DNA from: a virus
Taxonomy: Duplodnaviria > Heunggongvirae > Uroviricota > Caudoviricetes
Direction: 5' to 3' (one strand)
DNA: 20,685 nt
IMG/VR virus record: IMGVR_UViG_648861009_000006
Position 1 is the first letter of the stretch. The number at the start of each line of letters is the position of its first letter. The notes under the pieces were generated by a model. The model saw only the letters and a list, made by a program, of their open reading frames with translations. It was not told the origin of the DNA and ran no database searches. This document shows positions 4,452 to 19,685 of the stretch, piece by piece. Both the position numbers and the translations under genes were made by a program.

Positions 4452-4750
4452 NNNNNNNNNNNNNNNNNNNNNNNNNNNNNNNNNNNNNNNNNNNNNNNNN
4501 NNNNNNNNNNNNNNNNNNNNNNNNNNNNNNNNNNNNNNNNNNNNNNNNNNNNNNNNNNNNNNNNNNNNNNNNNNNNNNNNNNNNNNNNNNNNNNNNNNNN
4601 NNNNNNNNNNNNNNNNNNNNNNNNNNNNNNNNNNNNNNNNNNNNNNNNNNNNNNNNNNNNNNNNNNNNNNNNNNNNNNNNNNNNNNNNNNNNNNNNNNNN
4701 NNNNNNNNNNNNNNNNNNNNNNNNNNNNNNNNNNNNNNNNNNNNNNNNNN
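4452..4750. other. Run of 299 N (assembly gap)
   Basis: Unbroken N-run flanked by duplicated sequence. Confidence 0.95.
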
Positions 4751-5252: not shown

Positions 5253-5385
5253 TTTTTGGGACTCCTGGCTGATTAAGTATGTCGATAAGGCGTTTCCATC
5301 CGTCACGTAATTTACGGGTGATTCGTTCAAGTAAAGATTCGGAAGGGCAGCCAGCAACAGGCCACCCTGCAATGGCATATTGCAT
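5221..5385 (-). CDS. cIII: CIII (FtsH/HflB inhibitor), 54 aa
   Basis: Hand translation of the minus strand from ATG at 5383-5385 gives [54 protein letters not shown], matching lambda CIII. It is not in the ORF track because it is under 60 aa. Confidence 0.9.
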   Translation of the reverse strand: MQYAIAGWPVAGCPSESLLERITRKLRDGWKRLIDILNQPGVPKNGSNTYGYPD

Positions 5386-5457
5386 GGTGTGCTCCTTATT
5401 TATACATAACGAAAAACGCCTCGAGTGAAGCGTTATTGGTATGCGGTAACGCCGCGC

Positions 5458-7435: not shown

Positions 7436-8335
7436 TTATTTGATTATTTCTTTTATAAAGACTTCTTTCGGTTGGTATTTTTTATCTGATGATTTGAGCT
7501 GGTACGTTATTGTTATATCAGCACGTACAGAAAATTTACCTGCAAAATCTGATGGGTTTACGTTGGGGCCAAGAACCATATTTACTCTTCGATCTATTAA
7601 TCCAGGGATAACAGCAGCCCAACCTTTCTCTGGATTGTCGAGGTCTAATGCACGGATTTCAACATCAACATCAAAATGATCCTGAGTATATGACTCTGGT
7701 GTGAAGACAACTTCAGTTGGGGCTTTTTTAATGGTTTCAGCGGGAATGGTCACTGTACCACCCCCTGTACCTATGACCATCGTAGATCCTTCGTCTGCCC
7801 TAGCTGGGGCAAGCGTCTTAATGGAACTTTTGGCAAGAGTCTTCTTATTGGTTACCGTGCTTTCTATGATTGCTTGAAGACGGTCAGGTGAAATATTAGC
7901 CTCACCGGCACCAATATTGATGATTGTATTGTTATTTGCTTCAAAGTGGGAGGTGTTGCTTGGAGCCATAGCCTTAGTTGCTAGAACTAAGCCATATCCA
8001 ACCAGACCAATAACAACAGCACCAACGAGAGCGTTTCTCATTTTCCCATTTCCGATCTTTGCATGAGCGCCAGCAAGAAACTTGTCCATTTCTTCTTGGC
8101 TACCAAAGAGGAGTTTAATAACAATATCTTCATAAAGGCTTCCTGCTTCTAATCGCGCAACATGCACCGATATATCAAGGATATTAGCCCCTGTCAGTTC
8201 CTGCAAAACACCTTCTGATTGTTTTGCGATGGCCTCCCACCCTTGAAGGGAGGTAATCACATCTTTGATGCTTACAGGTTCTTTAGTTGAATAATATATG
8301 TTTTCGGTAAAGGTTAAAGATAATTCTTGGGACAT
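7436..8335 (-). CDS. Uncharacterised 299-aa single-pass membrane protein in the rexAB-equivalent slot; candidate superinfection-exclusion or abortive-infection protein
   Basis: Long ORF co-oriented with and 129 bp downstream of cI. One strongly hydrophobic segment sits mid-protein (MRNALVGAVVIGLVGYGLVLATKAMAP), preceded by a K/R-rich stretch that suggests N-in topology, with a Gly/Thr-rich C-terminal domain. Codon usage is AT-rich and its own terminator follows. I recognise no homolog. Confidence 0.65.
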   Translation of the reverse strand: MSQELSLTFTENIYYSTKEPVSIKDVITSLQGWEAIAKQSEGVLQELTGANILDISVHVARLEAGSLYEDIVIKLLFGSQEEMDKFLAGAHAKIGNGKMRNALVGAVVIGLVGYGLVLATKAMAPSNTSHFEANNNTIINIGAGEANISPDRLQAIIESTVTNKKTLAKSSIKTLAPARADEGSTMVIGTGGGTVTIPAETIKKAPTEVVFTPESYTQDHFDVDVEIRALDLDNPEKGWAAVIPGLIDRRVNMVLGPNVNPSDFAGKFSVRADITITYQLKSSDKKYQPKEVFIKEIIK

Positions 8336-9916: not shown

Positions 9917-11317
9917 ATGACAAATACAGCAAAAATACTCAACTTCGGCAGAGGTAACTTTGCCGGACAGGAGCGTAATGTGGCAGATCTCGATGATGGT
10001 TACGCCAGACTATCAAATATGCTGCTTGAGGCTTATTCGGGCGCAGATCTGACCAAGCGACAGTTTAAAGTGCTGCTTGCCATTCTGCGTAAAACCTATG
10101 GGTGGAATAAACCAATGGACAGAATCACCGATTCTCAACTTAGCGAGATTACAAAGTTACCTGTCAAACGGTGCAATGAAGCCAAGTTAGAACTCGTCAG
10201 AATGAATATTATCAAGCAGCAAGGCGGCATGTTTGGACCAAACAAAAACATCTCAGAATGGTGCATCCCTCAAAACGAGGGAAAATCCCCTAAAACGAGG
10301 GATAAAACATCCCTCAAATTGGGGGATTGCTATCCCTCAAAACAGGGGGACACAAAAGACACTATTACAAAAGAAAAAAGAAAAGATTATTCGTCCGAGA
10401 ATTCTGGCGAATCCTCTGACCAGCCAGGAAAACGNNNNNNNNNNNNNNNNNNNNNNNNNNNNNNNNNNNNNNNNNNNNNNNNNNNNNNNNNNNNNNNNNN
10501 NNNNNNNNNNNNNNNNNNNNNNNNNNNNNNNNNNNNNNNNNNNNNNNNNNNNNNNNNNNNNNNNNNNNNNNNNNNNNNNNNNNNNNNNNNNNNNNNNNNN
10601 NNNNNNNNNNNNNNNNNNNNNNNNNNNNNNNNNNNNNNNNNNNNNNNNNNNNNNNNNNNNNNNNNNNNNNNNNNNNNNNNNNNNNNNNNNNNNNNNNNNN
10701 NNNNNNNNNNNNNNNNNNNNNNNNNNNNNNNNNNNNNNNNNNNNNNNNNNNNNNNNNNNNNNNNNNNNNNNNNNNNNNNNNNNNNNNNNNNNNNNNNNNN
10801 NNNNNNNNNNNNNNNNNNNNNNNNNNNNNNNNNNNNNNNNNNNNNNNNNNNNNNNNNNNNNNNNNNNNNNNNNNNNNNNNNNNNNNNTTATTCGTCCGAG
10901 AATTCTGGCGAATCCTCTGACCAGCCAGAAAACGATCTTTCTGTGGTTAAACCGGATGCTGCAATTCAGAGCGGCAGTAAGTGGGGAACAGCAGAAGACC
11001 TGACCGCCGCAGAGTGGATGTTTGACATGGTGAAGACCATCGCGCCATCAGCCAGAAAACCGAATTTTGCTGGGTGGGCTAACGATATCCGCCTGATGCG
11101 TGAACGTGACGGACGTAACCACCGCGATATGTGTGTGCTTTTCCGCTGGGCCTGCCAGGACAACTTCTGGTCCGGTAACGTGCTGAGTCCGGCCAAACTC
11201 CGCGACAAGTGGACCCAGCTCGAAATCAACCGTAACAAGCAACAGGCTGGCGTGACAGCCGGAAAACCAAAACTCGACCTGACAAACACTGACTGGATTT
11301 ACGGGGTGGATCTATGA
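9917..11317 (+). CDS. O: Replication initiator O, interrupted by a 453-N gap with about 45 bp duplicated on both sides
   Basis: The N-terminal part MTNTAKILNFGRGNFAGQERNVADLDDGYARLSNMLLEAYSGADLTKRQFKVLLAILRKTYGWNKPMDRITDSQLSEITKLPVKRCNEAKLELVRMNIIKQQGGMFGPNKNISEWCIPQNEGKSPKTRDKTSLKL... and the C-terminal part ...ENDLSVVKPDAAIQSGSKWGTAEDLTAAEWMFDMVKTIAPSARKPNFAGWANDIRLMRERDGRNHRDMCVLFRWACQDNFWSGNVLSPAKLRDKWTQLEINRNKQQAGVT... both match lambda O. YSSENSGESSDQP is present on both sides of the gap. Confidence 0.85.
   Translation: MTNTAKILNFGRGNFAGQERNVADLDDGYARLSNMLLEAYSGADLTKRQFKVLLAILRKTYGWNKPMDRITDSQLSEITKLPVKRCNEAKLELVRMNIIKQQGGMFGPNKNISEWCIPQNEGKSPKTRDKTSLKLGDCYPSKQGDTKDTITKEKRKDYSSENSGESSDQPGKXXXXXXXXXXXXXXXXXXXXXXXXXXXXXXXXXXXXXXXXXXXXXXXXXXXXXXXXXXXXXXXXXXXXXXXXXXXXXXXXXXXXXXXXXXXXXXXXXXXXXXXXXXXXXXXXXXXXXXXXXXXXXXXXXXXXXXXXXXXXXXXXXXXXXXXXYSSENSGESSDQPENDLSVVKPDAAIQSGSKWGTAEDLTAAEWMFDMVKTIAPSARKPNFAGWANDIRLMRERDGRNHRDMCVLFRWACQDNFWSGNVLSPAKLRDKWTQLEINRNKQQAGVTAGKPKLDLTNTDWIYGVDL
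10260..10395 (+). repeat. ori-lambda: four iterons (ATCCCTCAAAACGAGGGA-like) plus the adjacent AT-rich region, inside O
   Basis: Four direct repeats: CATCCCTCAAAACGAGGGA, AAATCCCCTAAAACGAGGGA, TAAAACATCCCTCAAATTGGGGGA and TTGCTATCCCTCAAAACAGGGGGA. They are followed by an A-rich tract (ACAAAAGAAAAAAGAAAAGATTAT). Confidence 0.8.
10435..10887. other. Run of 453 N (assembly gap) inside O
   Basis: N-run. The about 45 bp before it (TTATTCGTCCGAGAATTCTGGCGAATCCTCTGACCAGCCAGgAAAACG) is repeated just after it with a 1-bp difference. Confidence 0.95.
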
Positions 11318-13233: not shown

Positions 13234-14202
13234 NNNNNNNNNNNNNNNNNNNNNNNNNNNNNNNNNNNNNNNNNNNNNNNNNNNNNNNNNNNNNNNNNNN
13301 NNNNNNNNNNNNNNNNNNNNNNNNNNNNNNNNNNNNNNNNNNNNNNNNNNNNNNNNNNNNNNNNNNNNNNNNNNNNNNNNNNNNNNNNNNNNNNNNNNNN
13401 NNNNNNNNNNNNNNNNNNNNNNNNNNNNNNNNNNNNNNNNNNNNNNNNNNNNNNNNNNNNNNNNNNNNNNNNNNNNNNNNNNNNNNNNNNNNNNNNNNNN
13501 NNNNNNNNNNNNNNNNNNNNNNNNNNNNNNNNNNNNNNNNNNNNNNNNNNNNNNNNNNNNNNNNNNNNNNNNNNNNNNNNNNNNNNNNNNNNNNNNNNNN
13601 NNNNNNNNNNNNNNNNNNNNNNNNNNNNNNNNNNNNNNNNNNNNNNNNNNNNNNNNNNNNNNNNNNNNNNNNNNNNNNNNNNNNNNNNNNNNNNNNNNNN
13701 NNNNNNNNNNNNNNNNNNNNNNNNNNNNNNNNNNNNNNNNNNNNNNNNNNNNNNNNNNNNNNNNNNNNNNNNNNNNNNNNNNNNNNNNNNNNNNNNNNNN
13801 NNNNNNNNNNNNNNNNNNNNNNNNNNNNNNNNNNNNNNNNNNNNNNNNNNNNNNNNNNNNNNNNNNNNNNNNNNNNNNNNNNNNNNNNNNNNNNNNNNNN
13901 NNNNNNNNNNNNNNNNNNNNNNNNNNNNNNNNNNNNNNNNNNNNNNNNNNNNNNNNNNNNNNNNNNNNNNNNNNNNNNNNNNNNNNNNNNNNNNNNNNNN
14001 NNNNNNNNNNNNNNNNNNNNNNNNNNNNNNNNNNNNNNNNNNNNNNNNNNNNNNNNNNNNNNNNNNNNNNNNNNNNNNNNNNNNNNNNNNNNNNNNNNNN
14101 NNNNNNNNNNNNNNNNNNNNNNNNNNNNNNNNNNNNNNNNNNNNNNNNNNNNNNNNNNNNNNNNNNNNNNNNNNNNNNNNNNNNNNNNNNNNNNNNNNNN
14201 NN
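13234..14202. other. Run of 969 N (assembly gap) within the nin region
   Basis: N-run with no flanking duplication detected. It probably hides the methyltransferase 3' end and the ninE/ninF/ninG-rusA-type genes normally found before Q. Confidence 0.95.
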
Positions 14203-14403: not shown

Positions 14404-14781
14404 ATGCGTGATATTCAGATGGTTCTTGAGCGTTGGGGAGCGTGGGCGGCTAATAATCATGAAGATGTGACCTGGTCGTCCATTGCCGCCGGTTTTAAGG
14501 GATTAATTCCTTCAAAAGTAAAATCTCGCCCGCAATGTTGTGACGATGACGCGATGATCATTTGCGGGTGCATGGCCCGTCTGAAAAATAACAACAGCGA
14601 TTTGCATGATTTGTTAGTGGACTATTATGTCGGCGGCATGACTTTTATGGCGCTTGCGCGTAAGCATGGTAGATCTGATTGTTGGATTGGCAGGATGCTC
14701 CAAAAAGCTGAGGGCGTAGTGGAGGGCATGCTGATGGTGTTGGATCTCAGATTGGAGATGGATGCTGATTGTTTGAGATAA
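14404..14781 (+). CDS. Q: Late-gene antiterminator Q (short Q of DLP12/phage-21/82 type, about 125 aa)
   Basis: Translation [34 protein letters not shown]...[16 protein letters not shown]... with GGAG RBS 8 nt upstream of ATG 14404. The listed ORF start at 14389 is a TTG. It is followed by a promoter-like region and a strong terminator. Confidence 0.8.
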
Positions 14782-14794
14782 TTAAAGGAAAAGT

Positions 14795-14850
14795 TGCTGT
14801 CTGGTTATCATTAGACTAATGTTTCAAATGTTAGAATCGCAACGTAGTTA
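14795..14850 (+). promoter_or_regulatory. Putative late promoter pR' / qut region
   Basis: Sigma70-like elements directly after Q, either TTGCTG-17 bp-TAATGT or TTAGAC-15 bp-TAGAAT. The exact hexamers are uncertain. Confidence 0.3.
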
Positions 14851-14880
14851 TGATCATATAACAGCTTGTTCCCTGATTTA

Positions 14881-14909
14881 GCCAGCCTCCCCAAAGGCTG
14901 GTTTTTTTT
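14881..14909 (+). terminator. tR'-like intrinsic terminator (target of Q antitermination)
   Basis: Stem CCAGCC / GGCTGG with loop TCCCCAAA, followed by T8, about 100 bp downstream of Q. Confidence 0.65.
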
Positions 14910-14937
14910 CTAATAAGTATCAATCCGGTTAGGTATT

Positions 14938-15462
14938 TTATTGTTTGACCCATAATAGTTCATTGACATTGAATCCCAATTTTTGAGCAGTACGCACATA
15001 GTCTGCTTTTACATTATCTGGAATAGTTGGAGTCCGTGCCAGAATCCATAGGTATTCTCTGTTCGGACCACTGACAAGAGCATACTTATACTCATCATCC
15101 AGTTTGATTACATTATAGCCACCATAGAAGGGGCCAAAAAACGAAACCTTCAACGCTGCAGTTGTATTATCTCCTGTAAAGTATGCTTTACCTTCGCTCT
15201 CGCTCCATTTGTTTTTCGTTGGGTCATATCCACGATTAAGTACACTAATCCCTCCGTCGTTCCGTTTCCCATAAGTGGCGCTGACCTGTTCCAGACCACG
15301 TTCAAATCGGTTCTCAAGCCGAGCTATTTCATACCATTTTCCGAGGTAGCGGTTGGTGTCAAAATTTGTAATCGGCTGCACACCTTTAGGTGGTGTCGGG
15401 GCCTTACATGCTATCAGAGTGAAAGAGAGTGCAATGCCAGTCAACACAGGCCATAACTTCAT
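14938..15462 (-). CDS. Blc-like bacterial lipocalin, outer-membrane lipoprotein, 174 aa
   Basis: Signal peptide with lipobox (LIAC), then NFDTNRYLGKWYEIARLENRFERGLEQVSATY...GKAYFTG...LKVSFFGPFYGGYNVI...YLWILARTP, closely resembling E. coli Blc. Confidence 0.85.
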   Translation of the reverse strand: MKLWPVLTGIALSFTLIACKAPTPPKGVQPITNFDTNRYLGKWYEIARLENRFERGLEQVSATYGKRNDGGISVLNRGYDPTKNKWSESEGKAYFTGDNTTAALKVSFFGPFYGGYNVIKLDDEYKYALVSGPNREYLWILARTPTIPDNVKADYVRTAQKLGFNVNELLWVKQ

Positions 15463-15653
15463 AATATATCCTGTACTTTTGATAGTTGAGAGTAAGTATT
15501 AAAGATAGATGATTACTACCGATCACCTAAAGAACTTTCCTACTATATTAGGAATAGTCCATAACAAAAAATTGTCAGTGATGACGGCAGAAAGGCAGTT
15601 TAGGTCGTGTACTACACTGTTAACCTGTTAATGAATTAGTCAAGGGGTAGGCA

Positions 15654-16613
15654 ATGATAAAAAAACCTGTCGTTGGGATCAGTGGTTGTTTGGCCGGTTC
15701 TTCTGTCCGTTTTGATGGTGGTCACAAAAGAGCTAGCTTTTTAATGGACAAATTACTGGAATGGGTAACATTCAAACCAGTATGTCCGGAAATGGCTATA
15801 GGGCTTCCAGTTCCGCGTCCTGCTCTACGTCTTGTTCGCTCGGCGCAAGGAAATATACGGATGTGTTTCAGCCACGACCAGAATGAGGATGTTACAGAGA
15901 AAATGACAGAGTTTAGTCGTTCTTATCTTGACAAATTAAAGGATGTATCGGGATTTGTGGTTTGTGCAAAATCTCCTAGCTGTGGTATGGAACGCGTGCG
16001 TGTATATGATGAAAATGGTAATCGTGGTCGTAAAGATGGAGTGGGACTATTTACGAGCACGTTGATGGAAAGGTTTTCCTGGCTACCGGTTGAAGAGGAT
16101 GGGCGACTACATGATCCAGTGCTTCGTGAAAACTTTGTTGAAAGAGTATTTGCTTTACATGAGCTCAATCATCTTTATAAAGCGAAATTATCAAGAAGGG
16201 AATTATTAGCTTTTCATAGCCGTTATAAGCTTCAGTTGTTGGCGCATAGCCAGGCCGGTTATAAAGAGATGGGGCCATTTGTGGCTGCAATACATGAGTG
16301 GGCAGACCTTGAATCATACTTTGAGGTGTATCGTGAGAAGCTGATGGCGATTCTCAGAAAACCTGCATCACGTAAAAATCACACGAATGTGCTGATGCAT
16401 ATACAGGGATATTTTAGTAACTGCTTAAATACACGTCAGCGTAAAGAGTTGAGCGATGTTATACTTAACTATCGAGCTGGCACGCTACCTCTTCTTGCGC
16501 CATTAACTTTGCTGAAGCATTACTTGGCAGAGTATCCTGATGATTATTTGCTTATACAGAATTACTTCCACCCCTATCCTGATGAACTGGCTCTAAGACT
16601 CTTGGTGAACTAG
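15654..16613 (+). CDS. DUF523 (TudS/YbgA-like, Cys-rich) plus DUF1722 fusion protein, 319 aa
   Basis: The N-terminal region has conserved cysteines (ISGCLAGSSVRFDGGHK, FKPVCPEM, VVCAKSPSCGMERV) typical of DUF523 Fe-S proteins (thiouracil desulfidase TudS family). The C-terminal region resembles YbgA/DUF1722. It is divergent from the lipocalin gene. Confidence 0.7.
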   Translation: MIKKPVVGISGCLAGSSVRFDGGHKRASFLMDKLLEWVTFKPVCPEMAIGLPVPRPALRLVRSAQGNIRMCFSHDQNEDVTEKMTEFSRSYLDKLKDVSGFVVCAKSPSCGMERVRVYDENGNRGRKDGVGLFTSTLMERFSWLPVEEDGRLHDPVLRENFVERVFALHELNHLYKAKLSRRELLAFHSRYKLQLLAHSQAGYKEMGPFVAAIHEWADLESYFEVYREKLMAILRKPASRKNHTNVLMHIQGYFSNCLNTRQRKELSDVILNYRAGTLPLLAPLTLLKHYLAEYPDDYLLIQNYFHPYPDELALRLLVN

Positions 16614-16922
16614 GCGTTTGGAATGCACCAACAAGATGATTTTCTCCTTAGAGAATGTTTACAATCGTAAAAACTTCACTATGATATCTATAGTTGTACA
16701 GTTTGTAAAAAAATTCGGTTCATGCTTAAGGTAATGTTAATATGTTAATTAATGATTAATAATCAAGCAAGCCAAAAATAGTTCTGTTTAATCTAGTATT
16801 ACATAAATATTTTAAAGAAAATATCAAAGTTCATGATGATATAATGAGATTTTTCTCATTGAAAATATGGCAATTTTAATATTTCCACCTATACTTACTT
16901 AACTCAAATCTAATTATGTCAG

Positions 16923-17663
16923 GTGGATGGTATGCCATGCATATGTTCTATCATTTTGGTTTTGAACTCGTTTGATATCCGGCTTGGTAAAGAAAAAATC
17001 TCTCTAAAAAAAGGAAGTGTTGTTGCTATAGAATACAATTTAAAAGTTTTCTTTTCTTCAAATAAAGATAATATAATGATCGTGGATATTGAAGAGAAAA
17101 CAGTTAATGACTTCTTTAAAAACAATACACTCTCACCTTTTTCTGTAAGAAGATTTTATTCAGCATACTTGATAGTAAACTGTACAGACTATTCATTGTT
17201 AAAGAACTTGATAGGTTGCTTGAATTGTGATGGTGAAACTACGGCTGTAGTTAAAAATTCAATATTATTTGCATGTCTTGCTATTTTATCCTCGGAAAAA
17301 ATGTTTCAGAGTTTTTTGTTTGGGTGTCTTAATAGTTTAGGAAGCAAAGTTAAGGCTATTATTCACTCGGACATATCTGCAGCATGGAGACTTTGTGATA
17401 TTTCTTCAAGACTATGTCTGAGTGAAAGTTTGTTAAAAAGAAAACTAAAACACGAAGGCTTATCATTTAGCAAATTAATTCTTGAAGAACGAATGGTGAT
17501 GGCTGAAAGGTTATTAAGCTACAATTTCTATCCTGTTGGGAAAGTTGCTAAAATATGTGGTTATGAAAGCGCGTCATATTTTATAAGTGTTTTCAGAAGA
17601 TATTTTGGTGTTCCCCCCCATGAATATTCATCAAGATTTTTTTTAGAAAAAGGCAAGATGTAA
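16923..17663 (+). CDS. AraC/XylS-family transcriptional regulator, 246 aa (AppY/GadX-like prophage regulator type)
   Basis: C-terminal AraC HTH signature (KICGYESASYFISVFRRYFGVPPHEY), very AT-rich codon usage, and a long AT-rich leader of about 300 bp. Confidence 0.8.
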   Translation: MDGMPCICSIILVLNSFDIRLGKEKISLKKGSVVAIEYNLKVFFSSNKDNIMIVDIEEKTVNDFFKNNTLSPFSVRRFYSAYLIVNCTDYSLLKNLIGCLNCDGETTAVVKNSILFACLAILSSEKMFQSFLFGCLNSLGSKVKAIIHSDISAAWRLCDISSRLCLSESLLKRKLKHEGLSFSKLILEERMVMAERLLSYNFYPVGKVAKICGYESASYFISVFRRYFGVPPHEYSSRFFLEKGKM

Positions 17664-17724
17664 CGTGATGCGTTTTGATGATTTTGTAATTTTCATATTT
17701 GATGATTATATGATGCTTTCAGCT

Positions 17725-17755
17725 ACGCCAGAATAATCGCTGGCGTTTTTCTTTT
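17725..17755 (+). terminator. Putative intrinsic terminator downstream of the AraC-family gene
   Basis: Stem ACGCCAG / CTGGCGT with an 8-nt loop, followed by TTTTTCTTTTC. Confidence 0.45.
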
Positions 17756-17830
17756 CTAATGTAACTTCTGTATCTTTCCCTCTTTCATTCCAAACCGTGT
17801 ACACCATCCGTTATTCGCGGAGGTGAGGCT

Positions 17831-18046
17831 ATGAAATCCATGGACAAGTTAACAACGGGCATTGCCTACGGCACCTCTGCAGGCAGTGCTGGCTACTGGT
17901 TTTTACAGTGGCTTGATCAGGTCAGTCCGTCACAGTGGGCGGCGATTGGAGTGCTTGGAAGCCTTGTGTTGGGTTTTCTCACTTATCTGACAAACCTTTA
18001 TTTCAAGATTAAAGAAGATAAGCGTAAGGCTGCGAGAGGTGAATAA
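17831..18046 (+). CDS. S: Phage-21-type pinholin S (dual-start antiholin/holin), 71 aa
   Basis: [71 protein letters not shown] has two TM segments and the dual-start motif M-K-S-M, matching S21/EssD. Confidence 0.9.
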
Positions 18047-18543
18047 TGTCGCCATCATTACGCAAGGCTGTAGCAGCTGCTATTGGTGGTGGGGCTGTTG
18101 CCATAGCGTCTGTGCTCATCACTGGTCCGAGTGGTGACGATGGTCTGGAAGGTGTCAGCTACATACCATATAAAGATATTGTTGGTGTATGGACTGTATG
18201 TCACGGGCATACAGGAAAAGACATCATGCTCGGTAAAACGTATACCAAAGCAGAATGCAAAGCACTCTTGAATAAAGACCTTGCCACTGTCGCCAGACAA
18301 ATTAACCCGTACATCAAAGTCGATATACCGGAAACAACGCGCGGCGCTCTTTACTCATTCGTTTACAACGTGGGTGCTGGCAATTTCAGAACATCGACGC
18401 TTCTTCGCAAAATAAACCAGGGCGATATCAAAGGCGCATGTGATCAGTTACGTCGCTGGACATATGCTGGCGGTAAGCAATGGAAAGGTCTCATGACTCG
18501 TCGTGAGATTGAGCGTGAAATCTGTTTGTGGGGTCAGCAATGA
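18046..18543 (+). CDS. R: SAR endolysin (lysozyme R21/RrrD type), 165 aa
   Basis: N-terminal signal-anchor-release segment ([20 protein letters not shown]) followed by a lysozyme domain; the start overlaps the S stop. Confidence 0.9.
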
Positions 18544-19032: not shown

Positions 19033-19326
19033 TTATTGTGAGCAATAGACACGCGCTTCCAGCGGAGTATAAATGCCTAAAGTAATAAAACCGAGCAATC
19101 CATTTACGAATGTTTGCTGGGTTTCTGTTTTAACAACATTTTCTGCGCCGCCACAAATTTTGGCTGCATCAACAGTTTTCTCCTGTCCAATTCCCGAAAC
19201 GAAGAAGTGATGGGTGATGGTTTCCTTTGGTGTTACTGCTGTCGGTTTGTTTCCAACAGTAAACGTCTGTTGAGCACATCCTGTAATAAGCATTGCCAGA
19301 GCGGCAGAAAACAACATTTTTTTCAT
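19033..19326 (-). CDS. bor: Bor lipoprotein (serum-resistance protein), 97 aa
   Basis: From the internal ATG: MKKMLFSAALAMLITGCAQQTFTVGNKPTAVTPKETITHHFFVSGIGQEKTVDAAKICGGAENVVKTETQQTFVNGLLGFITLGIYTPLEARVYCSQ, matching lambda Bor. Confidence 0.85.
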   Translation of the reverse strand: MKKMLFSAALAMLITGCAQQTFTVGNKPTAVTPKETITHHFFVSGIGQEKTVDAAKICGGAENVVKTETQQTFVNGLLGFITLGIYTPLEARVYCSQ

Positions 19327-19685
19327 CTTATTATCCTGCATTGTTAAAAACGGCAGAATCCTATGTGACAACAATTAAACGATAGTTAAATGGATTGATG
19401 AAAATTAAAACTATATAGGTGGATGCTCAGCCTATTGGAGGAGGGGGGCACTCAGAATCCTGTGGAATGAAATAAACCGCTCTTTCTGTCCATTACCCTT
19501 TTAGCTGCGCTGTATCGTCGCCGTATTCCCGCATTAACCATGACCGTAGCCCGACGGGGAATTCCTTCTGCGTGAGTGTGCGGGAATAATCAAAAACGAT
19601 GCACACCGGGTTTTACTGTGCTGACAGACGCAGGGTTACCCTCATAGTCGCTTTTCCGGTGCGATGGTGGAAGAAACCGGGATGT

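Follow-up and report, generated by a model that had tools for sequence, protein, structure and literature searches.

A lipocalin, rudS, and AraC-type regulator cassette as lysogenic-conversion cargo between Q and the holin gene of a lambdoid Escherichia coli prophage

The IMG/VR virus record IMGVR_UViG_648861009_000006 (20,685 nucleotides [nt]; the whole stretch is called the window here) is a lambdoid prophage with int/xis, exo-bet-gam, the cIII thermoregulator, N, sieB, cI, cro, cII, O, P, ren, ninB, dam, and Q, followed 3′ of Q by a lysis cassette of the phage 21 type and then by bor/iss. An identical prophage adjoins icd in Escherichia coli 2017C-4173W12. Here, we report on the slot between Q and the phage-21-type holin gene S (positions 14764 to 17819), which holds three intact genes outside the set of phage housekeeping functions: a lipocalin gene on the minus strand, and rudS and an AraC-family regulator gene (araC) on the plus strand (Table 1). 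An earlier annotation made from the letters of the DNA alone (the sequence-only reading) had described this gene content, order, and strandedness, all of which held, and Pfam matches are strong for all three genes. The three genes make up a real and ordinary lysogenic-conversion (moron) cassette; the slot, the moron logic, and each of the gene families were already known.

Table 1. Features of the Q-to-holin slot and its two anchors (positions in the window)
Feature	Position	Strand	Evidence or remark
Antiterminator Q gene, left anchor	14404..14781	+	PF06530, E = 2.5e-51
Candidate late promoter pR′ (TGGAGA-18-TG-GATAAT), overlapping the end of Q	14753..14782	+	Scan score 9/12, extended -10
tR′ intrinsic terminator, 9-bp GC-rich stem and U8	14880..14911	+	z = -2.7 for 14840-14915
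Blc-type lipocalin, putative outer-membrane lipoprotein, 174 amino acids (aa), lipobox LIAC, Cys19	14938..15462	-	PF08212, E = 2e-43
Divergent lipocalin/rudS intergenic region, 35% GC, presumed promoters	15463..15653	.	Well conserved among 19 variants
rudS, TudS-DUF1722 tRNA 4-thiouridine desulfidase	15654..16613	+	PF04463, PF08349; identical to RudS_vir
Very AT-rich spacer (26.7% GC) upstream of the regulator gene	16614..16931	.	Lengths of 318, 351, and 406 nt among variants
AraC/XylS regulator, 243 aa, prophage PatE/PsrA group, GadX/YdeO-like DNA-binding domain	16932..17663	+	PF12833/PF00165
Terminator-like hairpin and U-tract after araC	17725..17752	+	80 nt before the holin start
Phage-21-type holin S, right anchor	17831..18046	+	PF04971, E = 3e-35

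Compared with the DLP12 prophage of K-12, homology breaks off at 14763, with 18 nt of Q left to the stop codon, and is regained at 17820, 11 nt short of the S start; between these breaks, DLP12 has nmpC on the minus strand, carrying IS5 (nmpC::IS5). Phage mEp332, with a near-identical backbone, has an intact nmpC in the same slot, and Stx1 phage BP-4795 has a related Q (76.5% nt identity), then stxA1B1, then S. These three relatives bear out the earlier claim that the slot can hold stx or nmpC. More than 300 phage records match Q only as far as the 14763 break point, and the homology of Q with DLP12, mEp332, and hundreds of Stx-converting phages always ends there. Across the Q-stx-S (BP-4795) and Q-nmpC-S (DLP12, mEp332) systems, Q is homologous to the window's at 74 to 90% nt identity, and the cargo likewise lies between tR′ and the holin gene. 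In DLP12 and mEp332, the first cargo gene is also on the minus strand and also encodes an outer-membrane protein. The cargo itself differs, being a toxin in the Stx phages, a porin in DLP12 and mEp332, and a lipocalin, RudS, and an AraC regulator here. As expected of a moron, the cassette is an insertion between conserved phage genes, with other cargo in its place in these close relatives.

No tRNA gene was found in the slot (ARAGORN) and no structured RNA (Rfam, gathering threshold), the only Rfam match in the window being the lambda cIII thermoregulator at 5340 to 5398. A search for mobile-element boundaries found no direct or inverted repeats of note flanking the cassette. Given the constant break at 14763, the 3′ end of Q, pR′, and tR′ seem to be swapped together with the cargo. 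The U-tract tails of the two terminators are nearly alike (14902 to 14914, TTTTTTTTCTAAT; 17748 to 17760, TTTCTTTTCTAAT), a 13-nt similarity that may be chance or a trace of cargo insertion.

The interval was matched by megablast in 1,151 of 5,426 complete E. coli genomes, with query coverage of at least 80% in 669; the regulator gene alone reached coverage of at least 80% in 996. Twelve phage records (46 to 48 kb) carry the cassette, 11 of them at an identity of at least 99.8%, and almost all of the 80 IMG/VR loci compared show the order Q, lipocalin (minus strand), rudS, araC, S. Three different lambdoid backbones of E. coli (one at icd, one DLP12-like, and one Qin-like) have the cassette between Q and S. 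Insertions of IS1 and IS3 occur in some copies, and in the examined loci that lack the regulator gene, IS1 had removed it. The trio thus travels together, as had been proposed, in about one-fifth of complete E. coli genomes as well as in the phage records and IMG/VR loci, and the Q and S flanks in three backbones, the 80 viral loci, and the 12 phage records also uphold its assignment to phage cargo rather than host chromosome.

Between variants, Q and the lipocalin are conserved at 95 to 98%, RudS at 92 to 93%, and the regulator at 76 to 86%, and the cassette is tightly linked to a Q allele, an incremental addition to what is known of the slot. Ratios of nonsynonymous to synonymous substitution rates (dN/dS) were about 0.07 for the lipocalin gene, 0.10 to 0.14 for rudS, and 0.20 to 0.27 for araC, with 0.05 to 0.08 for Q, S, and R; all three cassette genes are under purifying selection. 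Two short contigs (L060 and L079) binned in a metagenome-assembled genome of Candidatus Nanosynbacter contain E. coli-type Q-lipocalin and rudS-araC-S-R segments at 88 to 98% identity; this is almost certainly DNA from E. coli prophages that was binned wrongly.

The middle gene has been characterized before, as RudS_vir. Its product agrees at 319 of 319 aa with gp66 (H3V29_gp66) of Escherichia phage 1H12 (Jouyvirus), the gene that was synthesized as RudS_vir by Jamontas et al. 2024 (PMC11417400). RudS_vir lowers 4-thiouridine (s4U) in E. coli tRNA (PMC11417400), so activity on s4U has been shown for the identical protein. Both domains lie in one 319-aa open reading frame (ORF), PF04463 at residues 7 to 149 (E = 4e-40) and PF08349 at 192 to 309 (E = 1e-40). 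The label "Cys-rich" given to this protein by the sequence-only reading does not fit, as there are 6 Cys in 319 aa, three of them [4Fe-4S] ligands. C12, C44, and C110 are the RudS_vir cluster ligands of Table 1 in PMC11417400; E46, S107, and S109 align with TudS E45, S101, and S103, and C110 likewise aligns with a catalytic residue of TudS. Across 10 homologues, all of these residues vary little or not at all, and C12, C44, E46, S107, and C110 are invariant. With RudS_KT, another member of the family, the ultraviolet A (UVA) growth delay fell to about 60 min, compared with about 105 min otherwise (PMC11417400). According to the same source, E. coli has no TudS/RudS homologue of its own and only a stand-alone DUF1722 protein, YbgA. 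The cassette flanking gp66 in phage 1H12 is 99.9% identical in nt to the one here, with the same gene order and no gene-level difference. In the text consulted, PMC11417400 treats RudS_vir in isolation, with no discussion of where the gene sits in the late-operon leader or of the lipocalin and AraC genes beside it.

The regulator starts at ATG 16932 according to PGAP and RAST, not at GTG 16923. It has a C-terminal double helix-turn-helix (PF12833 and PF00165), and the DNA-binding domain of GadX (3mkl) is matched at E = 5e-21 by sequence and with a template modeling (TM) score of 0.87 to 0.91 on an AlphaFold model; the model is of moderate quality (predicted local distance difference test, 72.9) and supports the AraC fold only. 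We draw no inference of a fatty-acid pocket from full-length matches to Rns/CsvR/ToxT, which gave a TM score of about 0.45 and a root mean square deviation of about 18 Å. In the protein search, this AraC family was confined to E. coli.

The regulator has relatives carried by prophages. It shares 53% identity over 235 aa with an AraC protein (ECs_0287) from O157 prophage Sp1 that is probably PatE, judging by its position in Sp1/OI-8, and 40% identity with an O157 prophage protein of the PsrA type, encoded in the Q-to-holin interval of an O157:H7 prophage. PsrA, PsrB, and PatE of enterohemorrhagic E. coli O157:H7 are likewise small AraC/XylS proteins on lambdoid prophages, and the homology extends over the full length. 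In Sakai Sp4, psrA (ECs_1087) itself sits between Q and the holin gene, so AraC-like regulators turn up in this slot repeatedly; the neighbors of psrA in Sp4 are a CAAX protease and tRNAs, unlike those here. PatE, PsrA, and PsrB activate the gadE/hdeA acid-resistance genes (review PMC10877973), and by homology the regulator of the cassette probably feeds into the host gadE/hdeA acid-resistance regulon.

The lipocalin passes the cutoff of the NCBIfam Blc subfamily NF007786 (315.5 bits versus 267) and matches Blc of the Protein Data Bank (PDB) entry 3mbt at E = 3e-69; judged by sequence, it is a Blc paralogue. Its N-terminus, MKLWPVLTGIALSFTLIAC-KAPT, reads as an L-I-A-C lipobox with Lys at +2, and the protein may be sorted to the outer membrane. 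It shares fold family and lipobox with E. coli Blc (PDB 1QWD, 2ACO, 3MBT) at 64% identity, and its role would be lipid or lysophospholipid handling in the envelope. Mathieu et al. 2020 (PMC6969025) listed blc among the morons of their infant-gut lambdas, with more than 50% of these phages carrying it, and our matching phage records seem to stem from the same collection.

Chromosomal relatives were sought in one-genome-per-species data. RudS homologues at 68 to 76% identity are encoded on the chromosomes of Citrobacter, Klebsiella, Kluyvera, Enterobacter, Kosakonia, Buttiauxella, and others, and no chromosomal copy was found for E. coli among these species-representative genomes. In representatives of 11 Kluyvera species, the order is radD-lipocalin(-)-rudS(+)-rplY; in Kosakonia, Enterobacter, Buttiauxella, Lelliottia, and a Raoultella, it is lipocalin(-)-merR(+)-rudS(+). 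No MerR gene separates lipocalin and rudS in Kluyvera or in the phage. Where present, the intervening MerR protein has MlrA-type helical and C-terminal domains (L029:4866-5594; also in loci L014, L027, L035, L038, L039, L054, and L061). These chromosomal loci share with the cassette the divergent orientation and partly alignable intergenic DNA, and none has an AraC gene or phage neighbors, unlike the phage cassette.

The lipocalin-rudS pair was most likely captured en bloc, with its spacer, from an enterobacterial chromosome, because divergent pairs of this kind exist on chromosomes, the lipocalin of the phage resembles its rudS-linked counterparts in Kluyvera, Kosakonia, and Enterobacter (73 to 81% identity) more than it does E. 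coli Blc (64%), and the phage lipocalin-rudS spacer aligns in two blocks with the Kluyvera chromosomal spacer. The AT-rich regulator gene (31% GC, from a family seen only in E. coli) probably joined separately. The sequence-only reading had named conserved synteny at a host locus as a point against phage cargo; lipocalin and rudS do form a conserved divergent chromosomal pair elsewhere, and the whole trio does not. The chromosomal pair accounts for the origin of the cassette and does not refute the moron reading.

Base composition sets the slot apart (37.3% guanine-plus-cytosine [GC] content versus 46.6% in the rest of the window), in keeping with the AT-richness noted earlier, though the drop is uneven, with 43.6% in the lipocalin gene, 42.7% in rudS, 31.3% in araC, and 26.7% in the rudS-araC spacer. 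The late promoter pR′ is probably the candidate in Table 1, a placement suggested because the scan match coincides with blocks (GATTGGAGATGGAT and ATAATTAA) conserved in five prophages that are otherwise divergent there. A second candidate (TGtTAGAAT) lies at 14829 to 14837, and neither is placed with confidence. Read on the minus strand, the direction of the lipocalin gene, the tR′ hairpin has no U-tract, and no terminator-like hairpin was found after rudS.

We consider it quite probable that the whole explanation holds, namely, that this is a three-gene lysogenic-conversion cassette in the late-operon leader of a lambdoid prophage, with the roles and origin given above and expression as follows. 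In the lysogen, the cassette genes would be driven by promoters of their own, weak or conditional ones, and the regulator region (27 to 31% GC) would be a likely H-NS target, silenced until a signal arrives. On induction, Q-modified RNA polymerase would pass tR′ and, before reaching S, cross rudS and araC in the sense direction and the lipocalin gene in antisense; we infer both the read-through and the antisense transcription from the anatomy of the locus. RudS, as a [4Fe-4S] desulfidase, would turn photosensitive s4U in tRNA back to uridine, and raised RudS would lower tRNA s4U just as ultraviolet light (UV) and the SOS response trigger induction. Lower s4U may in turn limit the near-UV growth delay, so that translation could continue. 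Like PatE and PsrB, the regulator would target acid-resistance promoters of the host.

A bolder proposal is that lipocalin-rudS is a sunlight (UVA) protection module derived from a light-responsive locus of the MerR/LitR type, boosted by Q at UV/SOS induction, with AraC replacing the lost MerR. We regard it as doubtful and rather improbable. If it were true, E. coli, with no RudS of its own, would gain a means of erasing photosensitive s4U from tRNA, and the near-UV growth delay that depends on s4U would no longer hold back translation or, through it, the output of phage. A literature search on a lipocalin link to light-inducible LitR regulons found nothing usable.

Several points weigh against the explanation of the cassette as a whole. 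Identity of the regulator to PatE/PsrA is only 40 to 53%, and its best full-length NCBIfam model, YdeO, is matched at E = 2e-32 with 112.7 bits, below the cutoff of 348, as is the GadX equivalog model (98.7 bits versus a cutoff of 500); we rejected the regulator as an orthologue of YdeO or GadX on these failed cutoffs and treat it as a relative. For rudS, tRNA desulfidation by RudS_vir was weaker than by the other RudS proteins tested, and UVA protection was shown for RudS_KT only (PMC11417400). As to origin, GC content is 43% in the phage copies versus 52 to 58% in the sampled chromosomal copies, and the donor of the pair was not among the sampled species, the best identities being 76% for RudS and 81% for the lipocalin. 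Any functional link between lipocalin and RudS would be one suggested by synteny. As to expression, the position of pR′ is not fixed between the two candidates, and promoter-like matches in a simple scan are at the level of chance (12 versus 11.2 ± 3.9 in shuffles). The earlier claim that each unit has its own promoter and terminator is supported in part: a hairpin with a U-tract follows araC, none follows rudS, the lipocalin gene has a hairpin without a U-tract, and the promoter matches are at chance level.

The weaker tRNA activity of RudS_vir, seen despite good solubility, together with a lag on 4-thiouracil shorter than that of any other RudS protein assayed (PMC11417400), is what would be expected if RudS served mainly in nucleotide salvage or detoxification, acting on free 4-thiouracil or on 4-thio-UMP from tRNA turnover, with the cassette a general stress or fitness module that has no link to induction; 4-thio-UMP is recycled by TudS enzymes (PMC10611767). 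Set against this are the findings that no RudS variant rescued a uracil auxotroph as TudS does and that all lowered tRNA s4U (PMC11417400), and that the DUF1722 tRNA-binding domain is kept under purifying selection. We judge this account unlikely. The same slot might house a function in anti-phage defense or counter-defense, either tRNA remodeling against tRNA-targeting immunity or lipocalin-based exclusion at the envelope, and prophage accessory slots often carry defense genes, with sieB and bor/iss present elsewhere in the window. No PADLOC model matches any of the three proteins, however, none has a nuclease, ATPase, or toxin domain, and the lipocalin-rudS pair occupies ordinary chromosomal loci (radD-rplY) in other genera, which makes such a function very improbable. 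Least credible of all, to the point of being negligible, is that the interval is host chromosome trapped in a rearranged prophage, or decaying junk: lipocalin and rudS do have chromosomal homologues in other Enterobacteriaceae, and IS1 or IS3 interrupts some copies, but in E. coli the Q and S flanks are always present, the cassette is found in phage genome records of 46 to 48 kb, the ORFs are intact with dN/dS of 0.07 to 0.27, E. coli is without a TudS/RudS homologue of its own (PMC11417400), and the species-representative genomes showed no chromosomal copy for E. coli. We rejected this reading on the flanks, the phage records, and the low dN/dS, and retain that of a lysogenic-conversion cassette.

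Elsewhere in the window, N-masked runs lie at 4452 to 4750 (gam/kil), 10435 to 10887 (O gene), and 13234 to 14202 (dam-ninE-ninX-rusA-ylcG), and long ORFs that span them are artifacts. A 299-aa ORF (7436 to 8335, minus strand; 41% GC) lies where lambda has rexAB, with the N/sieB side on one flank and cI on the other; Pfam and PADLOC gave no match, the sole match is PHROG 4506 (unknown function), and the ORF could be an uncharacterized exclusion or defense gene. The lysis cassette encodes a 71-aa holin of the P21 family and a lysozyme (18046 to 18543) with a hydrophobic N-terminus, features suggestive of a pinholin and a signal-anchor-release endolysin. The bor/iss serum-resistance lipoprotein gene (19081 to 19374, minus strand) follows directly after Rz, antisense to the late operon. 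The envelope-protein morons of the region (lipocalin, bor/iss, and nmpC of DLP12) are all oriented against late transcription.

Much of what the cassette contains was known before, as the enzyme has been assayed, blc has been reported as a moron, and the regulator is an uncharacterized member of a known prophage group. Added here, as incremental steps, are the likely chromosomal origin of the lipocalin-rudS pair, the tight link between the cassette and a Q allele, and a logic that may relate to UV. In about one-fifth of complete E. coli genomes, the sole eraser of tRNA 4-thiouridine comes from a prophage, and conserved synteny ties RudS to a lipocalin and to stress regulators. This yields a testable hypothesis, that a prophage may confer tolerance to near-UV light or sunlight and that tRNA de-modification may be coupled to prophage induction.

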